Shown one piece after another: positions 4,664 through 52,276 of a stretch of DNA of 64,000 nt. The position numbers and the translations under genes were made by a program. The DNA is from a bacterium (GTDB lineage Bacteria > Bacillota > Clostridia > Lachnospirales > Lachnospiraceae), in the NCBI GenBank assembly GCA_963658085.1, contig CAVKOU010000008.1, positions 8 to 64,007 of the forward strand. Direction: 5' to 3'. The notes under the pieces were generated by a model. The model did no database searches, was not told the origin of the DNA, and was given only the letters and a program-made list of their open reading frames with translations. Numbering within the stretch: position 1 is the stretch's first letter; every line of letters begins with the position of its first letter.

Positions 4664-5335
4664 TTAGCTCATTCGATATCCAACACCTCGAACAGTTTCA
4701 ATTCGGTCCCCGTAATCTCCAAGCTTTTGTCTTAAGGTTCTCACATGGACATCCACAGTTCTGGTTTCTCCGTCAAAATCGTATCCCCAGATATCCTCCA
4801 ACAGCTGGTCTCTGGTTTGAACGATATTTGGATTTCTCATGAGGCGTTTTAAAAGCTGATATTCCTTAAGGGTCAGTTGCACCACTTGATCTCCTGCTAC
4901 CACCTCATGCTTATCCGTATTCATCTCAATGCCTCTAAAGGTCAGAACATGAGGCTTGGCATTTTCTCCCTGTCCACTTCTTCGAAGCACAGCCTTGATC
5001 CTGGACACTAATTCCATCATACCAAAGGGCTTGGTAACATAATCGTCTGCTCCTGCATCCAGTCCCATTACCTTGTCATATTCCGCACCTCTGGCCGTCA
5101 CCATGATTACCGGGATTCCTCTGGTCTTCTCATCGGATTTCATCCACTTCAAAAGCTCCATTCCATCTTCTCCCGGGAGCATAATATCAAGCAAAACAAG
5201 CTCTGGCACTTCCTGTGCCAAAGCCTCTTTAAATGATTGTCCTTCTTCAAATCCTCGTGCATGAAATCCAGTGCTCTCCAGTGTATATATCACTAATTCA
5301 CGAATGCTGCTGTCATCCTCTACACAATAAATCAT
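4664..5335 (-). CDS. phoP: OmpR-family response regulator, PhoB/PhoP-like
   Basis: Receiver domain (VEDD...LLDIMLPGEDG...KPF) plus a winged-helix C-terminus (RTVDVHVRTLRQKL...VRGVGYR). Confidence 0.88.
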   Translation of the reverse strand: MIYCVEDDSSIRELVIYTLESTGFHARGFEEGQSFKEALAQEVPELVLLDIMLPGEDGMELLKWMKSDEKTRGIPVIMVTARGAEYDKVMGLDAGADDYVTKPFGMMELVSRIKAVLRRSGQGENAKPHVLTFRGIEMNTDKHEVVAGDQVVQLTLKEYQLLKRLMRNPNIVQTRDQLLEDIWGYDFDGETRTVDVHVRTLRQKLGDYGDRIETVRGVGYRMS

Positions 5336-5982
5336 AAACTTTCTCCTTTATGTACGCCAGTAATAGAAAATTCGACCCACTCAGCAATATTGGTTGCATG
5401 ATCCGCAATTCTCTCTAAATACTTTGCTACCATAATAAGATCCATAGCGTGACGGCCATCCTCTGCATGATCTGCAATCTGCTGAATCAGCTTTGTCTTC
5501 ACTCCCTCAAAGAGTTCATCCACCACATCATCTTCCTGGATTACATCACCTGCAAGAACCAAATCTTTCTTTACATAGGCCTCTACACTTTCATGGACCA
5601 TCTTGGTTGCCGCCTCTGACATCTGAATAATCATCGGAATATCCACCTGAGCATCCTTATTTTCAGATACGATGATTTCTCCGATATCAGCTGCCTGATC
5701 GCCGATTCTCTCCATATCTGTAATCATCTTAAGAGCTGCGGAAATCTGTCTAAGATCTCTTGCTACCGGTTGCTGTTGAAGCAATAATTTCAGGCAAATA
5801 CCTTCGATCTCACTTTCCAACTGATCAATCTTCTCATCAAACTGAACGACTTCTTTTGCCAGTTTCTGGTTTCCTTCTTTTAATGCTGTTGTTGCATTGG
5901 TAATCGCTGTCTCACAAAGCTCTCCCATATGCACCATGTCTTCATTAAGACGTTCCAGCTGTTCATCAAATCTATTACGCAT
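5332..5982 (-). CDS. phoU: Phosphate signalling complex protein PhoU
   Basis: Duplicated PhoU helices with ERIGDQA and ERIADHATNIAEW motifs. There is a 4-nt overlap with the regulator gene. Confidence 0.92.
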   Translation of the reverse strand: MRNRFDEQLERLNEDMVHMGELCETAITNATTALKEGNQKLAKEVVQFDEKIDQLESEIEGICLKLLLQQQPVARDLRQISAALKMITDMERIGDQAADIGEIIVSENKDAQVDIPMIIQMSEAATKMVHESVEAYVKKDLVLAGDVIQEDDVVDELFEGVKTKLIQQIADHAEDGRHAMDLIMVAKYLERIADHATNIAEWVEFSITGVHKGESL

Positions 5983-8630: not shown

Positions 8631-9551
8631 TTAAAGGACATCATCCCATGTAAGAGCCTCTCCTGTATAAATGCTCTTTACCTGATCTACACTAAGCTCA
8701 TCGATGGTGTTGTTCTTGTTTACAATAACCGCGATTCCATCGGTAGCGATTACAGTTGCTTCAAGTTCAGAAGCCTCATCATCCTTAAGTTCACGAGATG
8801 CCATTCCGATATCGTAGCTTCCGTCGATGGTAGATGTCATACCTGTTGTAGAATCGGTTGTCTGTAACTCAATTTCTGCATTTGGATTTACATCTTTGTA
8901 AGCCTCGATCAGTTTCTCCATAACCGGTGATACAGAAGAAGATCCTCCTACAACTGCTTTTCCGGAAGGAGCAGATCCTGCATAATCCTCAACATCATCC
9001 ACTGCAATATAGCCGTTCTCCTCAACTACTGCCTGTCCCTCTGTACTCATGATAAAGTCGATGAAATCCTTTGCTACTTCATTATCAAGATCAGCCTTTG
9101 TTGCAATGTTGAAAGGTCTTGATACCTTGTAGTCTCCACTCTTGATATTCTCAGCTGTTGCCTCAGCTCCATCGATCTTAAGAGCTTTTACGCTATCATC
9201 CAAAGAACCAAGAGATACATATCCAATTGCATAGTCATCTCCTGCTACTGTTGTAAGCATTACAGATGTGCTATTTGTGATCTGTGCATCCTCTGTAGTG
9301 TTATCTACTTTATTTCCATCTGCATCTTTCTCTTCGATACCAAATAACTCGATAAATGCTCCTCTTGTTCCAGAACCGTCTTCTCTTGAAACGATGGTAA
9401 TATCTGAAGATGTATCAAAATCTCCGGAAGCTTCTGTTTCTGCTGCACTAGAATCTGTATCTGTAGAATCAGATGAATTTCCACATCCGACTGCCATTCC
9501 TGCTACCATTGTTGCAACTGCCATTAATGCGATAAACTTTTTCATTTTCAT
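8631..9551 (-). CDS. pstS: Phosphate-binding lipoprotein PstS
   Basis: Signal peptide with lipobox (MAVGCGNS) and the PBP motif SREDGSGTRGAF. ATG at 9551 is preceded by AAAGGAG. Confidence 0.88.
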   Translation of the reverse strand: MKMKKFIALMAVATMVAGMAVGCGNSSDSTDTDSSAAETEASGDFDTSSDITIVSREDGSGTRGAFIELFGIEEKDADGNKVDNTTEDAQITNSTSVMLTTVAGDDYAIGYVSLGSLDDSVKALKIDGAEATAENIKSGDYKVSRPFNIATKADLDNEVAKDFIDFIMSTEGQAVVEENGYIAVDDVEDYAGSAPSGKAVVGGSSSVSPVMEKLIEAYKDVNPNAEIELQTTDSTTGMTSTIDGSYDIGMASRELKDDEASELEATVIATDGIAVIVNKNNTIDELSVDQVKSIYTGEALTWDDVL

Positions 9552-9612
9552 TTTTGAATTTTCTCCTTTTTTATCTTCTTTCACTTCTTGCACCTCATGT
9601 GCACAAGAGATA

Positions 9613-9698
9613 TGTTATCGGAGAAATGTAAAATCCAAAATCTTCTCTAAGTTAAAACTCTGTAAACTCTCAAAAAATACTTGCATCCTATTTGTAAC
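9613..9698 (-). promoter_or_regulatory. Candidate Pho-box-like hexamer repeats upstream of pstS
   Basis: Minus-strand hexamers are TTTACA (9627-9632), TTTAAC (9651-9656), TTTACA (9661-9666) and GTTACA (9693-9698). The middle pair is spaced 10 bp start to start, resembling TT(A/T/C)ACA PhoP boxes. Confidence 0.3.
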
Positions 9699-9806
9699 TG
9701 CATTTTGAAAGATAATGGGTTACTTTTCTTTCGAAAACAGATATAATGAAGTGATAAATATTATAGAAGATAAAATCATGATATACGTTGAAAGGAATTT
9801 ATAGAT

Positions 9807-10670
9807 ATGTGGATTGCAGACGGATGGAAAGATTATGAAGTAATTGATTGCAGTAAAGGAGAAAAATTAGAACGTTGGGGAGACTATCTTTTAGTCCGCC
9901 CGGACCCTCAGGTAATCTGGGATACTCCAAAGACAGAAAAAGGCTGGAAGCACATGAACGGTCACTATCACCGCAGCAAAAAAGGCGGCGGCGAATGGGA
10001 ATTCTTTGATCTCCCGGAACAGTGGCAAATTCATTATGGTGAATTAACCTTTAATTTGAAACCATTTAGTTTTAAACACACCGGGCTGTTTCCGGAACAA
10101 GCTACCAACTGGGACTGGTTTGGAAATAAAATCAAGAATGCAAACAGACCTATTAAAGTACTGAATTTATTTGCTTACACAGGAGGCGCCACTTTGGCCG
10201 CAGCTGCTGCCGGTGCTCATGTTACTCACGTAGATGCCTCCAAGGGCATGGTTGCCTGGGCGAAAGAAAACGCAGCTTCTTCCGGCCTGTCTGACAAGCC
10301 AATCCGTTGGTTAGTCGATGACTGTGTGAAATTTGTAGAAAGGGAAATCCGCAGAGGCAATCACTACGATGCCATCATTATGGATCCTCCTTCCTATGGA
10401 AGAGGCCCTAAAGGAGAGATCTGGAAAATCGAGGACATGATTCACGATCTGATCAAACTGTGTACCAAGATTCTTTCCGATGATCCCCTGTTTTTCCTGG
10501 TAAATTCTTATACAACAGGTCTGGCCCCGGCAGTATTGACTTACATGATTTCCACAGAACTAAAAAAATATGACGGTCATGTAGATTCTCAGGAAATCGG
10601 ACTTCCGGTTACTCATTCCGGATTAGTTCTTCCCTGTGGTGCTTCAGGAAGATGGGAATCCAACCATTAA
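9807..10670 (+). CDS. Class I SAM-dependent methyltransferase (RlmI/PF10672-like, no PUA domain)
   Basis: Motif I VLNLFAYTGGATLAAA and motif IV IIMDPPSYGRG. Confidence 0.75.
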   Translation: MWIADGWKDYEVIDCSKGEKLERWGDYLLVRPDPQVIWDTPKTEKGWKHMNGHYHRSKKGGGEWEFFDLPEQWQIHYGELTFNLKPFSFKHTGLFPEQATNWDWFGNKIKNANRPIKVLNLFAYTGGATLAAAAAGAHVTHVDASKGMVAWAKENAASSGLSDKPIRWLVDDCVKFVEREIRRGNHYDAIIMDPPSYGRGPKGEIWKIEDMIHDLIKLCTKILSDDPLFFLVNSYTTGLAPAVLTYMISTELKKYDGHVDSQEIGLPVTHSGLVLPCGASGRWESNH

Positions 10671-45663: not shown

Positions 45664-46629
45664 TCATCTACTTGTTTCGTTCTGCATTTTTTTGCGGTAC
45701 TCTCCGCTGACATCCTTCAAGTGTTTTTTCGGTACCATAATCTCAAGCTGTTGCTTTAGATTATTAATCTCAACCTCATCGTGGGAACCTCCGAATTCTC
45801 CATCCAGAGTCCATGGAATTTCCTCAACAGACTCAAAAGTAATATGTCCCGTGCGGAAAGTATACATATGTTTCGAGTCTGCCTGCTCCACCAAAAGAGC
45901 TGCCACAATCTCCTGAAGCTCCAAGGGATTCTTCGGTGTACGGATTAAGGTAACCTCAAAAAGTCCGTCATCAAAAGTTACACTTTTCCCAATCATGTTG
46001 CGGAATCCCCCTACGGATTTGGAGTTGGTAACCATTCCATAAATAAACTCATCCTCTATCGTTTCTCCATCATGGGTCACCTTAATCTTATAGGATGGAA
46101 TATTAAACAATCGCTTGGTACCCTCTAATACATAAGCCAGGTGTCCCAAAACATTCTTCATTTCCTGGGTAGTCTCATAGGAAACATCTGTAAAAAGTCC
46201 AAAAGCAGCTATGTAAGCAAAATAAGTATCATTAAACTGTCCCACATCACAGCCGAAACTGGCTCCGTGGACTGCATTGTCCGCTGCTTTTAATACATTT
46301 CTTGGAATATGCAGACTACAAGCAAAATCGTTGGTGGTGCCGGCCGGAATGTAGCTTACGGGCTTTCGATCCTCAGGAGCTCGTTCCATCATTCCGCTGA
46401 CAATCTCGTCAATGGTTCCGTCTCCTCCGCTACATACGATCATGTCATACATGGCAGGATCATACTCTAAAATTTTCTTATAGGCATCCTGATATCCCTG
46501 GGTCGGATGAGCTACTACCTCGTATCCCCCTTTTACAAATATATCCAGAACCTCTGATAACTGAGGCTTTAAAATCTCTTTACCGGCATGGGGATTAAAT
46601 ATAAAAAGCATTCGTTTCATAGAATTCAC
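45664..46629 (-). CDS. Diacylglycerol/lipid kinase, YegS/BmrU family
   Basis: Motifs FIFNPHAGK, GGDGTIDE and PAGTTNDFA. Confidence 0.88.
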   Translation of the reverse strand: MNSMKRMLFIFNPHAGKEILKPQLSEVLDIFVKGGYEVVAHPTQGYQDAYKKILEYDPAMYDMIVCSGGDGTIDEIVSGMMERAPEDRKPVSYIPAGTTNDFACSLHIPRNVLKAADNAVHGASFGCDVGQFNDTYFAYIAAFGLFTDVSYETTQEMKNVLGHLAYVLEGTKRLFNIPSYKIKVTHDGETIEDEFIYGMVTNSKSVGGFRNMIGKSVTFDDGLFEVTLIRTPKNPLELQEIVAALLVEQADSKHMYTFRTGHITFESVEEIPWTLDGEFGGSHDEVEINNLKQQLEIMVPKKHLKDVSGEYRKKMQNETSR

Positions 46630-46773
46630 CTCTAAACTTTTTCATAAATAACTTCCTATCGTACATATTAAAATCAACAAAAGACATATGATATACATAT
46701 GCCTTTTCTCTTAACTTTTCATCTTCAATTATGTCCACTATAGCATCCTTAAAAGTCTCTTCTTGCAAAATTC

Positions 46774-47028
46774 CTATCTTGCACAAAGAAAACTTTCGAT
46801 TCCCGCAACCGCATCCTTCTCATCGGCTCCGTCTGCGATTACTTCAACGTTTTCACCCTTTTGCAAACGAAGGGACATCATACCCATGATGCTCTTTGCG
46901 TTGATCTTCTTGTCTTCCATCATAATAAATACCTGACTCTGATACTGGCTTGCTTCCTGCACCAGATGTGCAATTGGTCGATCTTCCATCTCCATATTAT
47001 TCTGGATTGTTACCGGTTTTGTAATCAT
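46774..47028 (-). CDS. HPr-family protein lacking His15 (Crh-like, Ser46 retained)
   Basis: MEMEDRPIAHLVQ aligns to GLHARPAxxLVQ with Glu at position 15. The KSIMGMMSL Ser46 site is intact. It lies directly after whiA, as crh does in the B. subtilis yvc operon. Confidence 0.8.
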   Translation of the reverse strand: MITKPVTIQNNMEMEDRPIAHLVQEASQYQSQVFIMMEDKKINAKSIMGMMSLRLQKGENVEVIADGADEKDAVAGIESFLCAR

Positions 47029-47044
47029 ACCAAAGTGTTCCTCC

Positions 47045-47923
47045 CTACCTATCCCTTAACTTATCAGCGATCTCGCTAAGCTTACGCAATCTATGGTTCA
47101 CTCCCGACTTCCCAATAGGATGTTCCAGAAGCTCTCCTAGTTCTTTCAAAGTTGCATCCGGGTAAGCAAGACGTGTAAGGGCAACATCCTTCAAACCTTC
47201 CGGCAGCTTATCAAAGCCATTGGTGTCTTGAATATATTTAATATCCTCTGTCTGCTTTACAGCAGCCGACACTGTTTTGTTGATATTAGCAGTCTCACAG
47301 TTTACCTTACGGTTTACAGTATTTCGCATGTCCTTCATGATCCGGACATTCTCAAATTCCATAAGAGCCACATGGGCTTCCATAACATTGAGTACATCTA
47401 CGATCTGCGAACCTTCCTTTAAATAAACAACGTAGTGATGCTTACGCTCCACTACTTTTCCATCCAGTCCGAAACTCATCATGAGTCCCTTTAATTGTTC
47501 TGCTAATGGTGCCTCATCACATACAATCTCGAAATGATAAGACTTGTTGGGATCACTCATGGACCCCGATACAAGAAATGCTCCCCGAAGGTAGGATCTC
47601 TTACAGCAAGAAGATTGCAAGGACGCGTTCCTTATGGCTATCAATTCTGGTCCGCATCCATAAATATCGTAGCTAGCGCTGTCTTTCGACATATGCCTAC
47701 GCACCGCTATATCAGCCTTTATATTAAATGTTTTTCTCAGTAATGTAAAGCATTTTCTTGCAACTGCAAGGTTTTCCGTATGAAAATGCAGGCTATAGTT
47801 ATCTCTAACCTGCTTGATTTCACCAGACATTCTGATAAATGCCGCAAGTTCTGCCAAATTACAATGTCTGGCTTCCTTCTCCTGCTTTACAAGTTCATCT
47901 TTAATCTGTCCTGAAAATGACAT
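47045..47923 (-). CDS. whiA: DNA-binding protein WhiA
   Basis: Starts MSFSGQIKDEL, has a LAGLIDADG-like middle region and a C-terminal HTH (SGVNHRLRKL). Confidence 0.9.
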   Translation of the reverse strand: MSFSGQIKDELVKQEKEARHCNLAELAAFIRMSGEIKQVRDNYSLHFHTENLAVARKCFTLLRKTFNIKADIAVRRHMSKDSASYDIYGCGPELIAIRNASLQSSCCKRSYLRGAFLVSGSMSDPNKSYHFEIVCDEAPLAEQLKGLMMSFGLDGKVVERKHHYVVYLKEGSQIVDVLNVMEAHVALMEFENVRIMKDMRNTVNRKVNCETANINKTVSAAVKQTEDIKYIQDTNGFDKLPEGLKDVALTRLAYPDATLKELGELLEHPIGKSGVNHRLRKLSEIADKLRDR

Positions 47924-47978
47924 ACATGCTCCTTTTATTTCTTCCTATCTTATAGGCAAATCCAGACAAATCCACAGC

Positions 47979-48860
47979 CTACTTTGCCTTGGTAATGGCA
48001 TCCTTTCCGATGTCACTATGTTCAATGCGAATCCCGTAATCCGCCCCTTCCTCCAGAGCTTCATATAGTGCATTTGCCAGAGTAACAGAGCGATGCTTTC
48101 CTCCGGTGCAGCCGATAGCAATCACCAACTGCGTTTTCCCTTCCTTAATATAATTAGGAATCAAAAACTTTACCATATCTTCTAATTTTTCTAAGAACTC
48201 ATCTGCCAAGCCACCAGCCATGACATAGTCTCTGACCGACTGATCATTTCCCGTCAAAGGGCGAAGTTCTTCTACATAATAGGGATTTGGAAGGAATCGC
48301 ACATCAAATACCAGATCTGCGTCCTTTGGAATTCCATATTTAAAACCAAAGGATTCTACGGTAATGTACAGATTATGATACTCTTTGTTTTCAACGAAAA
48401 TATTTTGCAGCTCCTGTCTCAGTTCCCTGGTCAAGGTATGGGTGGTATCCAAAACATAGTTTGCCCGTTCCTTAAGAAAAGCAAGCTCCCCTCGTTCTCT
48501 TTTGATTCCTTCATCCACCTTTCCTTCCCTGCCGGACAAGGGATGATATCTTCTGGTTTCCTTGTAGCGCTTAATAAGGGCATCATCGGAGGATTCCAAA
48601 AATAAAATCTCGTAATTTAATGATTTCTTATCCAAGTCATCCAGAATATTTTCTAATTCTTTAAAGCTATGTCCACTTCTGATATCAATTCCAAGAGCCG
48701 CCTTCTCCGTCTCTGATCCGGGAATCGTAAGTAGCTCTGCCATCTTAGGTATCAAAGGAAATGGCAGATTGTCTACGCAAAAATATCCAAAATCTTCTAA
48801 CATCTTAAGAGCTGTACTTTTTCCCGCCCCGGACATTCCGGTCACAATGACAATTCTCAT
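47979..48860 (-). CDS. rapZ: RNase adapter / nucleotide-binding protein RapZ (YvcJ)
   Basis: Walker A VTGMSGAGKS, FGFKYG, DVRFLPNP and CTGGKHRS. Confidence 0.92.
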   Translation of the reverse strand: MRIVIVTGMSGAGKSTALKMLEDFGYFCVDNLPFPLIPKMAELLTIPGSETEKAALGIDIRSGHSFKELENILDDLDKKSLNYEILFLESSDDALIKRYKETRRYHPLSGREGKVDEGIKRERGELAFLKERANYVLDTTHTLTRELRQELQNIFVENKEYHNLYITVESFGFKYGIPKDADLVFDVRFLPNPYYVEELRPLTGNDQSVRDYVMAGGLADEFLEKLEDMVKFLIPNYIKEGKTQLVIAIGCTGGKHRSVTLANALYEALEEGADYGIRIEHSDIGKDAITKAK

Positions 48861-48892
48861 ATGCCCCTCCTTTTAACACTCCTTAAACCAGT

Positions 48893-48948
48893 CAAATCTA
48901 ATTCAATCTAATCTAATCCAATTTAATTTAATCTAATTTAACTCAATT
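48893..48948. repeat. AT-rich AATCT/AATTT pentamer-like low-complexity tract
   Basis: aaatctaattcaatctaatctaatccaatttaatttaatctaatttaactcaatt, in the murB-rapZ spacer. Confidence 0.8.
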
Positions 48949-49858
48949 AAAACTTGCCTATTTTTTTTACCTCTGCCTCCAAAGGCACTCCAAATTTATC
49001 TTCTACTTTCTCTGAGACCTGTCTCATAAGATTGTCGATATCCGATGCCGTTGCATGGTCTTTGTTGATCACGAATCCCGAATGTTTTTCGGAAACCTGG
49101 GCTCCTCCTACCCGGAATCCCTTAAGTCCTGCATCCTGAATCAATTTCCCTGCAAAATATCCTTCCGGCCGTTTAAAAGTACTTCCCGCACTTGGATATT
49201 CTAATGGCTGTTTCTCGATTCGTTTTTGTTTTAACTCTTCCATCAATTCCTTAATTTCTGCAGGATTCTTTGGTGTAAGCTTCATTTTCGCTGATAGAAC
49301 AATATCTCCTCTTTTCCCAATGAGACTGGTGCGATATCCAAGCTCCAGCTGCTCTGTCGGAATTGTCTCAATTTCTCCCTGTGGATTTAATACCGTCACG
49401 CTAACCAAAATATCCTTCATTTCTCCGCCGTAGGCTCCTGCATTCATCACACAGGCGCCTCCAAGGCATCCGGGAATTCCTGCGGCAAATTCAAAACCAC
49501 CCAAAGAATGTTCTAACGCCTTACTTCCAATGGCAGACAAAAGTGCACCTGCTCTGGCTGTTATAAATTCTCCATCCACCGTAATCTCACTCATCCTGCG
49601 GCCAATCTGAATAATCGCACCGTCATATCCTTCATCCGATACCAAGAGATTACTTCCATTTCCCACTATATAATAAGGAACATTCTCTTCCCTACAAAGA
49701 GCTATAAGCTTTACAACTTCCTCCTCCGTCTCCGGAATCAGAAAGTAATCTGCAGGTCCACCTACCCGAAAAGTGGTATGTTTACTCATAGGTTCCTCAA
49801 GCAATGCCCTTTTTTCTGTCACGATACTTGCTAATTTATCATAAAATTTTTGGTCCAT
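48947..49858 (-). CDS. murB: UDP-N-acetylenolpyruvoylglucosamine reductase
   Basis: FAD-binding motifs TTFRVGGPADY and GNGSNLL, plus the C-terminal SAGSTFKRP. ATG at 49858 follows GGGAGGAAG. Confidence 0.92.
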   Translation of the reverse strand: MDQKFYDKLASIVTEKRALLEEPMSKHTTFRVGGPADYFLIPETEEEVVKLIALCREENVPYYIVGNGSNLLVSDEGYDGAIIQIGRRMSEITVDGEFITARAGALLSAIGSKALEHSLGGFEFAAGIPGCLGGACVMNAGAYGGEMKDILVSVTVLNPQGEIETIPTEQLELGYRTSLIGKRGDIVLSAKMKLTPKNPAEIKELMEELKQKRIEKQPLEYPSAGSTFKRPEGYFAGKLIQDAGLKGFRVGGAQVSEKHSGFVINKDHATASDIDNLMRQVSEKVEDKFGVPLEAEVKKIGKF

Positions 49859-49987
49859 AAATCTTCCTCCCAATATATCCCCTATGTTACACTATGTATT
49901 TTTCAAACTCAAGGGGACACTTGCAAAATTCCGGCAGATGCTGTATATTGATGGAAAACAATTTTCAAAAAGGAGTGATGTTTTCCC

Positions 49988-51265
49988 GTGGACTCGAGTG
50001 TCGTCGCGCAATTAGTTATACTTATTATTTTATTAATCCTTTCTGCATTTTTCTCATCAGCAGAAACTGCACTTACAACTGTAAACCGAATCCGAATCCG
50101 CAATCTGGCTGAAGAAGGCAATAAGAATGCTCAGATTGTTCTAAAAATTACGGATGATTCTTCTAAGATGTTAAGTGCGATCCTGATCGGCAACAATATA
50201 GTAAACTTGTCCGCTGCATCTTTGACCACTACCCTGTCCTACCATTTAGGTGGATCCATGGTAGCCATTGCCAGCGCTATATTGACAGTTGCTATCTTGC
50301 TCTTTGGCGAGATTACTCCGAAGACTCTTGCAACTCTTCATGCCGAAAAGATTTCCCTGCTCTATGCAAAAATTATTCATATATTTATCGTTATAATGAC
50401 GCCTTTTATCTTTATTATCAATGGATTGTCATCGATTTTATTCCGACTGATGCGGATCGATCCAAATGCTAACAATAAATCTATGACAGAAGGTGAACTG
50501 CGTACCATTGTGGATGTGAGCCACGAGGACGGGGTCATTGAATCAGAAGAAAAGGAAATGATCTACAATGTGTTTGACTTAGGGGATGCAAAAGCAAAAG
50601 ATGTTATGGTTCCTCGCGTTCATGTAACATTTGCAGACGTAAACAGTACCTACGAAGATCTGATTGAAATCTTTAGAGAGGATAAGTTTACCAGACTTCC
50701 TATTTACAAGGACACCACAGACAATGTCATCGGAACTATCAACATGAAGGACCTTCTTCTATACAGTAACACCGGAGACTTTCATGTGCGTAATATTATG
50801 CGAGAGCCTTATTTCACTTATGAATACAAGGACATTTCCGAACTGTTGGTGGAAATGCGTCAGGCTTCTCTCAATATTGCCATCGTTCTAGACGAATACG
50901 GTGAAACATCCGGCCTCATTACTCTGGAAGATATTTTGGAGGAGATCGTGGGCGAAATTCATGATGAATATGATGAAAATGAAGAGGAGTTTATCACCAG
51001 GATCAACGACTTAGAATACACGGTAGAAGCTTCTATTAACTTAGATGATCTTAATGATGAATTAGATCTTAATCTTTCTTCCGAAGATTATGATTCTTTA
51101 GGCGGATTTATCATCGAACATCTTGATCGTTTGCCGGAGGTTGGTGATCAATTCACCACAGAGGATGGTATTAAGATGATCGTAGAAAAGATGGATAAAA
51201 ACCGCATCGAACGGGTACATCTTTATTTGCCTGAACCCAAAGAGGAAGAAGAAACTAAGGAATAA
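49988..51265 (+). CDS. CNNM/CorC/HlyC-family transporter (DUF21-CBS-CorC_HlyC)
   Basis: DUF21 TM region (SAFFSSAETAL), a CBS pair and a C-terminal transporter-associated domain. The start codon is GTG. Confidence 0.85.
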   Translation: MDSSVVAQLVILIILLILSAFFSSAETALTTVNRIRIRNLAEEGNKNAQIVLKITDDSSKMLSAILIGNNIVNLSAASLTTTLSYHLGGSMVAIASAILTVAILLFGEITPKTLATLHAEKISLLYAKIIHIFIVIMTPFIFIINGLSSILFRLMRIDPNANNKSMTEGELRTIVDVSHEDGVIESEEKEMIYNVFDLGDAKAKDVMVPRVHVTFADVNSTYEDLIEIFREDKFTRLPIYKDTTDNVIGTINMKDLLLYSNTGDFHVRNIMREPYFTYEYKDISELLVEMRQASLNIAIVLDEYGETSGLITLEDILEEIVGEIHDEYDENEEEFITRINDLEYTVEASINLDDLNDELDLNLSSEDYDSLGGFIIEHLDRLPEVGDQFTTEDGIKMIVEKMDKNRIERVHLYLPEPKEEEETKE

Positions 51266-51266
51266 A

Positions 51267-51315
51267 AAATCGGAGAGAAGGAATCTTTTTACGAGATTCT
51301 TTCCCTCCGATTTAT
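51267..51315. terminator. Bidirectional terminator between convergent genes
   Basis: Long imperfect hairpin aatcggagagaaggaatct / agattctttccctccgatt. Confidence 0.75.
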
Positions 51316-51317
51316 TT

Positions 51318-52235
51318 TTATTCTTTTGGCATTTCTCCATTCTCTACCACATGGAAGAGATCGTTGATATCTTCATCCTCCTCGGGAGCATCTTCTCCCG
51401 CAAGTTTTAGTATATTAGCGATTTCATCCGGGCTAAGTCCACTCTGTTCGGCAACTTCCTCTACGGAAACTTTTCTCCCGAAATCATCCTTCATTTTCTG
51501 AATGATCTCATCTAAATCCGAAACCTTACTTACCATCTTCTTATCTCTGGCTTTGGTTTCCGTCTGCTCCTCAATCATTGTCAAAATGGTAGAACGCACT
51601 TCTTCAAGGAGCTTACGTTCTAGGGCTTCTCCTTCCAAGTCATCTTCCTCTAAGGTCGCGTCCCGGGAATATTCTTCCGAAGATATAAATTCTTCAGACT
51701 CCTCTTCCTCATCCTCCCAGATAATCTCTGCAGGCTCTCGTAATTTCTGAACTCCAAGCAAAAGAGCCATACTTCCTTCCTGCACCAGATCTCCTAACGG
51801 AATTTCCGGCTGTTTTAAGTCCATAGCCATTTCCATCACCTGTGGCATCAGCTTCTTTAGAAGCACCTCCTCCTCGGTCTTTGGTCGCATGTTCTCTATA
51901 TCTCTTAGATACTCCTTGGCAAATTCTCTCTCCGCATTACTTAAAGCATCTCTTCCCTTTAGAGGACCTTTATTTGCAGCCTCGTTTATGCCTTCCTGAT
52001 TTCCGGAAACATCTCCATCTGCAACTTCTTTGATCTCACCTTTTCTTGGCACAAATCCAGAGACGATGACCTTCTGGCTCATAAGATATTCGCACACCAA
52101 CGACAGCTGTTCCTCATTTAGATCATCTTCTTTAAAATATTCTTCCACTTCCGAAAAGGACATTCTATTTCCCTGTTCTTTTCCTTGCTCCAGGATTCCC
52201 GCAAGTTTCGCGGTAAATTCCAATCGGTCTGCCAT
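51318..52235 (-). CDS. Acidic sigma-70 (SigA/RpoD)-derived protein lacking regions 2.3-2.4 and 4
   Basis: It aligns by eye to B. subtilis SigA region 1.1 and region 1.2 (EYLRDIENMRP vs MYLKEIGRVNL). It also aligns to region 2.1-2.2 (LGDLVQEGSMALLLGVQKL vs FLDLIQEGNMGLMKAVEKF). Region 3.0-3.1 matches as well (MVSKVSDLDEIIQKMKDDFGRKVSVEEVAEQSGLSPDEIANILKLA vs [46 protein letters not shown]). The STYATWWIRQAI block is replaced by an acidic insert, and the ORF ends before region 4. Confidence 0.65.
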   Translation of the reverse strand: MADRLEFTAKLAGILEQGKEQGNRMSFSEVEEYFKEDDLNEEQLSLVCEYLMSQKVIVSGFVPRKGEIKEVADGDVSGNQEGINEAANKGPLKGRDALSNAEREFAKEYLRDIENMRPKTEEEVLLKKLMPQVMEMAMDLKQPEIPLGDLVQEGSMALLLGVQKLREPAEIIWEDEEEESEEFISSEEYSRDATLEEDDLEGEALERKLLEEVRSTILTMIEEQTETKARDKKMVSKVSDLDEIIQKMKDDFGRKVSVEEVAEQSGLSPDEIANILKLAGEDAPEEDEDINDLFHVVENGEMPKE

Positions 52236-52276
52236 ATTTTCGCTTACCTTTCCTTTATGTTTCCATTTTATTTTTA

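Follow-up and report, generated by a model that had tools for sequence, protein, structure and literature searches.

In this study, we found that an open reading frame (ORF) on the minus strand of the window (the whole stretch of 64,000 nucleotides that was analysed) is a real gene and that its 305-aa product is genuinely homologous to SigA, the primary sigma factor. The product retains the main core-docking motif of region 2.2, as supported by its sequence, and the loss of promoter recognition is likewise supported. On balance, we think it probable that this protein is a SigA-derived pseudo-sigma, which docks on RNA polymerase and cannot initiate transcription; polymerase binding and a role in competition or storage are what we infer from these features.

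Results

Gene Structure and Boundaries

The start codon ATG is located at 52235 and the stop codon at 51318-51320, and the parts of the gene are listed in Table 1. The Shine-Dalgarno-like site AAGGAAAGG lies inside the 41-nt gap between a thrE-like gene and the ORF, and a promoter and terminator scan of this gap found neither a hairpin nor a consensus promoter. In the disordered linker, a segment of about 15 aa is extra and is missing from the closest homologues in the family alignment. The following part carries the motif GDLVQEGS, in which D149, Q152, E153 and G154 correspond to Escherichia coli D403, Q406, E407 and G408. The region 3 part closes with the family motif ILKLAGE; a Pfam Sigma70_r3 match is found at aa 239-279, and alignments with SigA/RpoD sequences of the PDB span aa 213-291.

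Table 1. Features of the truncated SigA paralog and its flanks (positions in the window)
Feature	Position	Strand	Characteristics
Truncated SigA paralog, whole ORF	51318..52235	minus	305 aa, pI 4.3, net charge -43 (from the ORF list and the sequence)
Shine-Dalgarno-like AAGGAAAGG	52247..52255	minus	11 nt before the ATG of the ORF
aa 1-60, region 1.1-like domain	52056..52235	minus	Helix-strand-helix-helix-strand; net charge -7; AF2 pLDDT 82-97
aa 61-92, disordered linker	51960..52055	minus	AF2 pLDDT <50 over residues 67-92
aa 93-166, region 1.2, shortened 2.1 and region 2.2	51738..51959	minus	Three confident AF2 helices
aa 167-204, disordered acidic insert replacing the aromatic melting block of region 2.3	51624..51737	minus	Net charge -18; AF2 pLDDT ~52-56
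aa 205-281, degenerate 2.4 helix running into 3.0, then 3.1 helix-turn-helix	51393..51623	minus	
aa 282-305 and stop codon, disordered acidic C-terminal tail	51318..51392	minus	Net charge -9; AF2 pLDDT 45-53
Intrinsic terminator, hairpin with 19-bp stem, then UUUUUU	51262..51313	minus	Fold energy -24.3 kcal/mol

The terminator has a z-score of -4.96, and 0 of 200 shuffled sequences folded as well. It is common to the ORF and the convergent CNNM gene, with an A-run on the opposite side that makes it bidirectional. The hairpin and U-run stand directly 3' of the ORF, and the convergent gene ends just beyond them, which leaves no space for regions 3.2 and 4. The first-pass annotation of this DNA had stated that the ORF stops before these regions, which agrees with the position of the terminator and with the domain models below.

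Homology to SigA and Predicted Fold

The block-by-block alignment with SigA that had been proposed earlier was confirmed by two methods. The family profile aligned collinearly with residues 12-274 of the 380 of the genome's own SigA (hhalign probability 99.65%, E 3.8e-25), and BLASTP of the 305-aa protein against the same SigA gave a single collinear alignment (E 4e-8). The profile also matched the SigA gene in genomes of Lachnospiraceae and of other Clostridia (E roughly 1e-27 to 1e-35), and the sequence matches of the 305-aa protein in the PDB were sigma factors only.

The Pfam models, which the first-pass annotation had named as a check, found neither an intact region 2 nor a region 4. Sigma70_r2 stayed below threshold (14.0 bits, cut-off 24), covering positions 2-44 of 71 of the profile, i.e., regions 2.1-2.2, at aa 126-167. 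Sigma70_r3 just passed (25.9 bits, cut-off 25.3) through a match confined to the first half of the profile (positions 4-44 of 78), and was matched by 54 of 66 family members. No match to Sigma70_r4 was obtained in the 305-aa protein, even at E up to 10; four of the 66 members gave weak r4 matches (best E 2.4e-5), which are taken to be probably the 3.1 helix-turn-helix. Sigma70_r1_1 was unmatched in the 305-aa protein itself and matched in 48 of the 66 members (best E 9e-9); aa 5-60 were aligned to region 1.1 of SigA by hhalign, and a weak phmmer alignment joined aa 9-77 to region 1.1 of C. difficile SigA (7l7b_F). Judged by homology, the protein is a member of the sigma-70 family on the evidence of its sequence: the collinear similarity to SigA, the core-binding motif of region 2.2 and the Sigma70_r3 match.

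AF2 modelled the 305-aa protein with a pLDDT of 80 and a 233-aa family member with 92. Foldseek matches were sigma factors only, including B. subtilis SigA, C. difficile SigA and a Taq sigma fragment of regions 1.2-3.1, although the global TM-scores were low (0.2-0.3); no single template superposes because the predicted domain arrangement is unlike the holoenzyme-bound form. In the model, a single uninterrupted helix of about 50 residues (203-252) spans regions 2.4 and 3.0, and two short helices come after it.

Core-Docking Motif and Interface Changes

Residues were counted in 102 family members with E. coli numbering. Region 2.2 is kept: D403 is present in 99 members, Q406, E407 and L412 in 96 each, and G408 in 95, with N (66/102) or S (29/102) at position N409; D149, Q152 and E153 are invariant in the alignment of close homologues. 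D403, Q406, E407 and G408 have been named as contacts of the beta-prime coiled-coil (bioRxiv 10.1101/2020.09.07.285775; PMC3326312), and these counts bear out the first-pass proposal that the main core-binding surface is retained. The same proposal had regions 2.1-2.2 preserved, which holds for the 2.2 motif and for most of region 2.1: E. coli residues 363-379, 17 residues at the 1.2/2.1 junction and the start of 2.1, are deleted in 87 of the 102 members, including the 305-aa protein. L402, an interface residue (PMC3326312), is replaced by Gly in 96 members, R385 by Pro in 85, and P453 by Asp in 94; the family lacks the proline break that separates sigma-2 from sigma-3. Lying at or close to the interface, the L402 replacement, the 2.1 deletion and the continuous 2.4-3.0 helix predicted by AF2 could change how the protein docks. 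If the modelled continuous helix is right, sigma-2 and sigma-3 cannot both occupy the core as they do in the holoenzyme.

Region 2.2 of sigma factors is a surface often bound by anti-sigma factors. Because they often use this same surface, conservation of the motif alone cannot tell core binding from binding to another partner. The protein could be a mimic that titrates a SigA-binding regulator, its region 1.1, 2.2 and 3.1 surfaces serving as bait for an anti-SigA protein, host or phage encoded, in the style of PhyR and NepR. The loss of DNA functions fits this explanation equally well, and a precedent for a degenerate sigma-derived domain acting by partner capture is PhyR, called a 'sigma factor mimic' in the literature (e.g., PMC5898713, PMC4598750). 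Several findings speak against titration: no adjoining gene that could encode a partner is conserved, with neighbours varying among genera; there are no PADLOC matches and no informative PHROG matches; and the protein has no receiver or other sensory domain. We also know of no anti-SigA factor in Clostridia. Such a titration role is in our view unlikely.

The beta-prime clamp helices are a site used by both sigma-2 and NusG-family factors. The protein might therefore be an elongation or recycling factor that sits on the clamp helices of elongating or post-termination polymerase and modulates pausing, NusG access or the release of polymerase from nucleic acids, much as the acidic delta subunit does in Bacilli. 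This would accord with the conserved 2.2 motif, with the strongly acidic disordered segments and the region 1.1-like domain, and with the genome, in which no delta subunit and no HARE-HTH match above the cut-off were found; to our knowledge, however, Clostridia in general have no delta, and its lack in this genome is therefore not specific. As a precedent, region 2 of sigma can bind elongation complexes anew by way of the clamp helices (PMC3326312). Against it, sigma-dependent pausing needs the -10-like recognition that is lost here, the protein has no homology to delta, and its placement on elongation complexes is hypothetical. We regard an elongation role as rather unlikely, and favour the pseudo-sigma reading, in which the motif would serve docking on the core.

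Loss of Promoter Functions

Across the 102 members, the aromatic residues of region 2.3, Y425, F427, Y430, W433 and W434, are replaced by E, D, E, E and E, respectively. Q437 is replaced by A, T440 is variable, and R448 is replaced by E in 95 of the 102; the list of residues that melt or read the -10 element (Y425, Y430, W433, W434, Q437 and T440) was taken from 10.1101/2020.09.07.285775. The first-pass annotation had the whole -10 recognition and melting block replaced by an acidic insert. This is right for the 2.3 block of SigA (KGFKFSTYATWW), which alone is replaced by an acidic segment in the 305-aa protein, but the backbone of the 2.4 helix persists (IRQAITRAIADQ, aligned with VRSTILTMIEEQ), with its -10-reading residues gone. 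The long acidic insert (about 35-38 aa) is found only in this species and its close relatives (P0003-P0022), and in most of the family the acidic replacement is short; the family is acidic throughout (pI 4.15-4.75). The extended -10 positions of sigma-3 are partly kept, with H455 replaced by K in 86 of the 102 members and E458 present as E in 62.

The features on which functional promoter specificity depends, namely a full Sigma70_r2 domain, the melting and reading residues of 2.3 and 2.4, and region 4, are thus missing. The acidic 2.3 positions, the loss of Q437, T440 and R448, and the absence of regions 3.2 and 4 together support the earlier view that promoter recognition has been lost.

Distribution, Selection and Origin

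The 305-aa protein has 108 close homologues. At 50% identity, the family falls into more than 150 clusters, with lengths of 114-382 aa throughout and of 170-330 aa almost without exception, and nearly all full-length members share one end point, the end of the profile, after region 3.1. It is carried by at least 85 of 201 Lachnospiraceae genera and was absent from all of the approximately 290 non-Lachnospiraceae Clostridia genomes examined. Conservation in related genomes, which the first-pass annotation had set against a pseudogene, is therefore wide. A comparison of strain variants gave 11 synonymous against 2 conservative changes, and another gave 9 against 4, with no indels in either; family-specific motifs are invariant among the homologues. 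The gene is under purifying selection.

In the tree, the short proteins group in a single clade (SH-aLRT 99) adjoining Lachnospiraceae SigA. The stem branch of the family is very long relative to SigA (1.87 substitutions per site), and the evolutionary rate is roughly 5-10 times that of SigA. The family apparently originated by duplication of the primary sigma factor gene within Lachnospiraceae. A defence-system or phage origin was also considered; there were no PADLOC matches, and PHROG matches were insignificant only.

The long stem and the loss of canonical sigma motifs are what one would see in a functionless, decaying remnant of a duplicated sigA. However, length and end point are conserved over the clusters and genera given above, family motifs are invariant, synonymous changes exceed non-synonymous ones among strains without indels, a homologue has its own transcript, and AF2 folds are confident; a remnant is extremely improbable. 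A recent truncation or pseudogene was likewise rejected, given the constant end after 3.1, the terminator directly 3' of the ORF, purifying selection and wide conservation.

Genes of this family are currently annotated as 'sigma-70 domain-containing protein', 'region 1.1 domain-containing protein' or hypothetical, and these labels are an annotation problem. Full-text literature searches of limited coverage found no paper on the family.

Expression

In RNA-seq data of a cultured relative that bears a homologue (G118), a separate contig (9455-10258) covers just the homologue ORF (9467-10177) in three runs, and this ORF sits between a divergent and a convergent neighbour. The homologue is thus transcribed on its own in this relative, at a moderate contig depth of about 43-51; in these runs, the CNNM gene beside it reached about 375-455. 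Runs containing the 305-aa locus of the present genome are of uncertain type and gave fragmentary, low-depth contigs only.

Genomic Neighbourhood

The first-pass annotation had described the gene as the last of an rpiB-HAD-thrE string. This is true here, but the order is not conserved elsewhere, and rpiB is near the paralog gene in only 1 of 23 loci; an operon logic with rpiB-HAD-thrE was therefore rejected, and this context carries no functional information. When the flanking ORFs of 21 loci were clustered, the recurrent neighbours were Amidase_3+SPOR (8 loci), CNNM (8) and murB-rapZ-whiA-crh (6), all in one subclade, and no partner gene was conserved across the 21 loci beyond this clade-specific gene order. 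In two genera, the paralog gene lies just upstream of the dgt-dnaG-sigA operon.

Proximity to murB-rapZ-whiA in about 9 of the 23 loci raises the explanation that the protein makes up half of a split or unconventional sigma factor and would still direct initiation with a separate DNA-binding partner, e.g., a region-4-like HTH protein such as the nearby WhiA, to supply -10/-35 recognition, as in T4 gp55/gp33 or SigO-RsoA. The C-terminal helix-turn-helix of WhiA resembles sigma region 4, and the partly kept extended -10 positions of sigma-3 would fit as well. However, the convergent CNNM gene lies between the paralog gene and the whiA operon, the linkage is missing from more distant genera, and WhiA is universal in Gram-positives whereas the paralog is confined to Lachnospiraceae. 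A search of the genome for an orphan region-4 partner found none, the small matches being a YlxM-like protein, an XRE-type HTH and a phage-type protein, all unlinked to the paralog gene. Melting aromatics that are all acidic are, moreover, seen in no known split sigma. We consider a split sigma very unlikely.

Discussion

Among known proteins, the paralog is closest to SigA/RpoD of Firmicutes (the genome's own SigA, G000:C4; C. difficile 7l7b_F; B. subtilis 7ckq_F and 9a58_A), with which it shares collinear regions 1.2, part of 2.1, 2.2, the 2.4 backbone and 3.0-3.1, probably also region 1.1, the clamp-helix motif (DLIQEGN) and, by Foldseek, the sigma fold. In contrast to them, it has lost its 2.3 aromatics and -10-reading residues or carries acidic ones in their place, and it lacks regions 3.2 and 4, 17 residues of 2.1 and the sigma-2/sigma-3 proline break. 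Nearly the same domain span occurs as a separate polypeptide in the Taq sigma-A fragment of regions 1.2-3.1 (1ku2; Foldseek E 7e-4), where sigma-2 and sigma-3 stand alone, and in proteolytic sigma70 fragments that bind core. Those are laboratory pieces with 2.3/2.4 intact, whereas the paralog is a natural gene with a probable region 1.1 and the DNA-binding residues removed.

Other systems resemble the paralog in part. Alphaproteobacterial PhyR is sigma-derived, no longer initiates and is thought to act by protein-protein mimicry; it differs in its origin from an ECF sigma (sigma-2 and sigma-4), in its fusion to a receiver and in binding NepR rather than polymerase, whereas the paralog has no receiver and no sigma-4 and derives from the group 1 factor SigA. 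T4 gp55/gp33 and B. subtilis SigO-RsoA are also region-4-less sigma-family polypeptides, but they retain promoter recognition and melting, with a dedicated partner gene, and the paralog family has neither. With Rsd, 6S RNA and delta (RpoE), the paralog shares the proposed outcome, the modulation of polymerase availability to the primary sigma through nucleic-acid-mimicking acidic surfaces. There is no homology to them (for delta, no PF05066 (HARE-HTH) match in the 305-aa protein and none above the cut-off genome-wide), and the targets of Rsd and 6S RNA are sigma and holoenzyme, respectively, whereas the paralog would replace sigma itself.

Considering the above results, we propose a plausible model for the paralog, which develops the first-pass suggestion of a sigma decoy or polymerase storage factor. 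The protein would be a copy of SigA that ends after region 3.1 and has lost every residue for reading or melting DNA, in which region 1.1, the sigma-2 helices with the beta-prime clamp motif of region 2.2 and the sigma-3 helix-turn-helix would be kept. It would dock on core RNA polymerase at the sigma-2 site and present only acidic surfaces (region 1.1, the Glu/Asp segment of 2.3 and the tail) where SigA would hold promoter DNA, so that the complex could neither recognise nor open promoters. The outcome would be competition with SigA and other sigma factors, or polymerase parked free of DNA. As the protein has neither region 3.2 nor region 4, it should bind core much less tightly than SigA does, and a competitor would therefore need high abundance, which sits poorly with the moderate RNA contig depth of the homologue in the cultured relative. 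More specifically, and more tentatively, the protein may act as a dedicated Lachnospiraceae 'decoy sigma' that sits on the beta-prime clamp helices in place of sigma-2 while region 1.1 and the DNA-mimicking acidic segments fill or shield the DNA-binding surfaces, yielding a promoter-blind, DNA-repellent polymerase. We know of no such natural protein that has been characterised so far.

Competition of sigma factors for core is a central idea of bacterial regulation, and it is known to be modulated by anti-sigma factors, Rsd, 6S RNA and small-molecule effectors. If the model is true, a disarmed primary sigma that occupies the sigma site without sigma function would be a different solution, and a new way to set the polymerase pool available to SigA and the alternative sigma factors. 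The family would also be a natural experiment on which parts of sigma serve core docking and which serve work on DNA. In the gut microbiota of humans and animals, Lachnospiraceae rank among the most abundant families, and roughly half or more of their genera carry the gene; as several carriers are culturable (Clostridium scindens, Dorea and others), the idea is directly testable in them.

Gene boundaries and homology to SigA

The ORF of the short sigma paralog was directly followed by a hairpin with a 19-bp stem and a U-run (-24.3 kcal/mol, z -4.96 in the fold calculation), which the consensus terminator scan did not detect, though its fold is clear. As this terminator and then the end of the CNNM gene follow directly, no DNA is left for regions 3.2 or 4, whose absence the first-pass annotation had read from the ORF. 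Its claim of similarity to SigA was also borne out, with the paralog collinear with the genome's own SigA (380 aa, contig C4) in BLASTP (E 4e-8) and the family profile matching SigA residues 12-274 in hhalign (99.65% probability, E 3.8e-25).

In the Pfam search it had proposed, Sigma70_r3 was the sole model above cut-off; it scored 25.9 bits against a required 25.3 at aa 239-279 and was matched in its first half only (model positions 4-44 of 78). Sigma70_r2 stayed below threshold at 14 bits, with a partial match that spans model positions 2-44 of 71 and aa 126-167 and corresponds to regions 2.1-2.2, and Sigma70_r4 had no match in the paralog. Family-wide, Sigma70_r3 was matched in 54/66 members, r1_1 in 48/66 and r2 in 36/66. 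NCBIfam gave weak matches only, to RpoD/SigA-type models (aa 213-282). The PDB sequence search returned sigma factors only; their end of region 2.4 and regions 3.0/3.1 were covered by residues 213-291, and region 1.1 of C. difficile SigA gave a weak alignment to the N-terminus. By sequence homology, the paralog is a member of the sigma-70 superfamily derived from group 1 SigA; it does not have the complete region 2, the melting and -10-reading residues or the region 4 that define a working sigma factor.

Coordinates of the short sigma paralog, its neighbours, two homologues and the predicted protein segments
Feature	Location	Coordinates	Strand	Remark
Short sigma paralog ORF	window	52235 (ATG) to 51318	minus	305 aa
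AAGGAAAGG, ribosome-binding-like site	window	11 nt upstream of paralog ATG	minus	
Strong bidirectional intrinsic terminator	window	51262-51313		common to CNNM/CorC-type gene and paralog
Convergent CNNM/CorC-type gene	window	49988..51265	+	end adjoins paralog terminator
murB-rapZ-whiA-HPr/Crh-like-DAGK block	window	45664-49873		order conserved in several Lachnospiraceae genera
Short sigma paralog L072	G103:C36	6650-7408	same as operon	252 aa; directly upstream of dgt-dnaG-sigA (dGTPase)
Short sigma paralog L077	G198:C185	6660-7439	same as operon	259 aa; directly upstream of dgt-dnaG-sigA (dGTPase)
Region 1.1-like module	paralog	residues 2-59		AlphaFold2 confident
Linker	paralog	residues 60-92		AlphaFold2 disordered
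Three helices (region 1.2, shortened 2.1, 2.2)	paralog	residues 93-166		AlphaFold2 confident
Acidic insert	paralog	residues 167-202		AlphaFold2 disordered
Single long helix, 2.4 continuing into 3.0	paralog	residues 203-252		AlphaFold2 confident
Region 3.1 helix-turn-helix	paralog	residues 258-278		AlphaFold2 confident
Acidic tail	paralog	residues 282-305		AlphaFold2 disordered

Sigma functions and predicted structure

Residue positions follow E. coli sigma70 numbering, transferred column by column to an alignment of 102 family members and the SigA of this genome. The region 2.2 residues named as beta-prime coiled-coil contacts (10.1101/2020.09.07.285775; PMC3326312) were near-invariant, with D403 kept in 99/102 members, Q406, E407 and L412 in 96/102 each and G408 in 95/102, and position 409 occupied by N in 66/102 and S in 29/102. 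The region 2.3 aromatics were replaced (Y425 by E, F427 by D/E, Y430 by E/A, W433 by E, W434 by E/Q), Q437 was mostly Ala, T440 was variable, R448 was Glu in 95/102, and P453, the break between sigma-2 and sigma-3, was Asp in 94/102. The earlier proposal that an acidic insert had displaced the promoter-recognition block holds for the aromatic 2.3 block, but the 2.4 helix is still present in degenerate form; the insert is real, but its long form is confined to this species' close relatives. Region 2.1, described as retained, is kept only partly, since 17 residues at its start (363-379) are deleted in 87/102 members. This deletion touches the presumed docking surface, in which L402 was also changed to Gly (96/102) and R385 to Pro (85/102). 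The divergent subgroup P0103-P0105 keeps the deleted segment; at its locus L028 a 143-aa zinc-ribbon protein (Zn_ribbon_15, 5058-5489), a possible partner specific to this subgroup, is encoded 2 nt past the paralog stop.

AlphaFold2, run with the family alignment, gave a mean pLDDT of 80 for the paralog and 92 for a 233-aa C. scindens member. Foldseek against the PDB returned sigma factors only, including B. subtilis SigA, C. difficile SigA and a Taq sigma fragment (1.2-3.1), with low global TM-scores that reflect a predicted arrangement of the domains unlike the one bound in the holoenzyme. Were the 2.4-3.0 helix as rigid as in this model, the two domains could not both be placed as they are in SigA. 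The paralog has a pI of 4.3 and a net charge of -43 (-18 for the acidic insert alone), and the pI was 4.15-4.75 in all family members examined.

Distribution and origin of the family

A word-indexed search returned 108 homologues, nearly all of 200-305 aa. A few of them carried source names, from Dorea, [Clostridium] scindens and Candidatus Bariatricus, with the labels [quoted passage not shown], "sigma-70 domain-containing protein" or "hypothetical". When the profile was searched exhaustively against 1.84 billion representatives, 325 proteins were obtained at E <= 1e-30, the best 150 of which (E <= 6e-39) were all 114-382 aa and nearly all 170-330 aa. As the match reached the protein's own C-terminus in nearly all full-length proteins among these 150, ending after region 3.1 is a fixed trait of the family. 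The whole-genome profile search found a short-frame copy beside full-length SigA in at least 85 of 201 Lachnospiraceae genera, a lower bound counted from the matches listed. No short frame was found in ~290 genomes of other Clostridia families, where all matches at E <= 1e-26 lay in frames of at least 359 aa and were SigA.

Metagenomic strain variants of the window gene comprised 11 synonymous vs 2 conservative changes, and 9 vs 4, with no indels. A broken gene, including the recent truncation considered at first pass, is ruled out by the family-wide conservation, the constant end point and these mostly synonymous variants, and a remnant without function is highly improbable. A 202-aa variant (L046, G200:C3, 1441-2049) has no region 1.1 and keeps 1.2, 2.1-2.2 (LVQEGN) and 3.0-3.1; the listed matches in genomes G148 and G154 are likewise short at the N-terminus. 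Unrelated N-terminal extensions, which may be fusions or gene-call artefacts, were seen in P0109 (382 aa, ~170 extra residues) and P0106 (297 aa, PF00800 + Sigma70_r3, a prephenate-dehydratase domain).

In the maximum-likelihood tree, for which long-branch artefacts are possible, all short proteins formed one clade (SH-aLRT 99), placed next to the SigA proteins of Lachnospiraceae with support 87. The clade has a very long stem (1.87 substitutions per site) and internal branches several-fold longer than those of SigA of the same genera. The G103 and G198 copies, from two Lachnospiraceae genera, are closer to SigA at the C-terminus (IMKISLDALSV), and their position upstream of dgt-dnaG-sigA fits a local sigA duplication, which is the family origin suggested here. 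One Lachnospiraceae genome has a tandem sigA duplication, with adjacent full-length SigA-type frames (G090:C29, 26398-27171 and 27546-28313; 383 and 369 aa).

Genomic context and expression

In this genome and ~8 other loci, the short sigma gene is followed by the convergent CNNM gene and then murB-rapZ-whiA-crh-DAGK, often with an Amidase_3+SPOR gene upstream; no neighbour was common to the paralog loci in more distant genera. One half of a split sigma factor is an improbable reading, and the paralog is not of the type that has a partner gene. The rpiB-HAD-thrE string in which the gene had been placed is present in the window but is not conserved across loci. As the 41-nt gap between the thrE-like gene and the paralog has no hairpin and no consensus promoter, the two may be co-transcribed in this species. 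Its 2.45-Mb genome (G000) has a small sigma repertoire: Sigma70_r3 matched SigA and the paralog only, Sigma70_r2 only four other frames, and no sporulation-type sigma factors were evident genome-wide. A search of this genome found no delta subunit, and the paralog is not one.

The G000 locus was represented by fragmentary contigs only, in runs of uncertain type. In pure-culture RNA-seq assemblies of G118, a complete genome with a homologue (ORF 9467-10177), the homologue had its own contig in three runs (9455-10258, 9475-10231 and 9477-10306), covering just the ORF with a ~55-130 nt leader and ending at a terminator hairpin; its neighbours, one convergent and one divergent, were on other contigs. 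These contigs, which lack strand information and may contain carried-over DNA, point to a monocistronic mRNA that is moderately abundant.

Discussion

A full-text literature search found no description of this family. The most economical mechanism, to which the sequences lend a slightly better than even chance, is that the paralog would dock on core RNA polymerase at the sigma-2 site and form a complex unable to recognise promoters, with the outcome that SigA and the other sigma factors would face a competitor or that polymerase would be kept free of DNA. Caveats for this predicted docking are the changes specific to the family at L402 and within region 2.1, the rigid 2.4-3.0 helix of the model, and a core affinity expected to fall with the loss of regions 3.2 and 4. 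That the paralog acts on elongating or recycling polymerase seems unlikely, and slightly less probable again is a PhyR-like bait for a SigA-binding regulator. The paralog is not a mimic of the PhyR type. As for the promoter-blind docking favoured here, the selective pattern, as read from the alignment, is that the parts contacting and opening promoter DNA have all been removed or turned acidic, and the docking-helix signature, a region 1.1-like module and the sigma-3 fold are retained over long evolutionary time.
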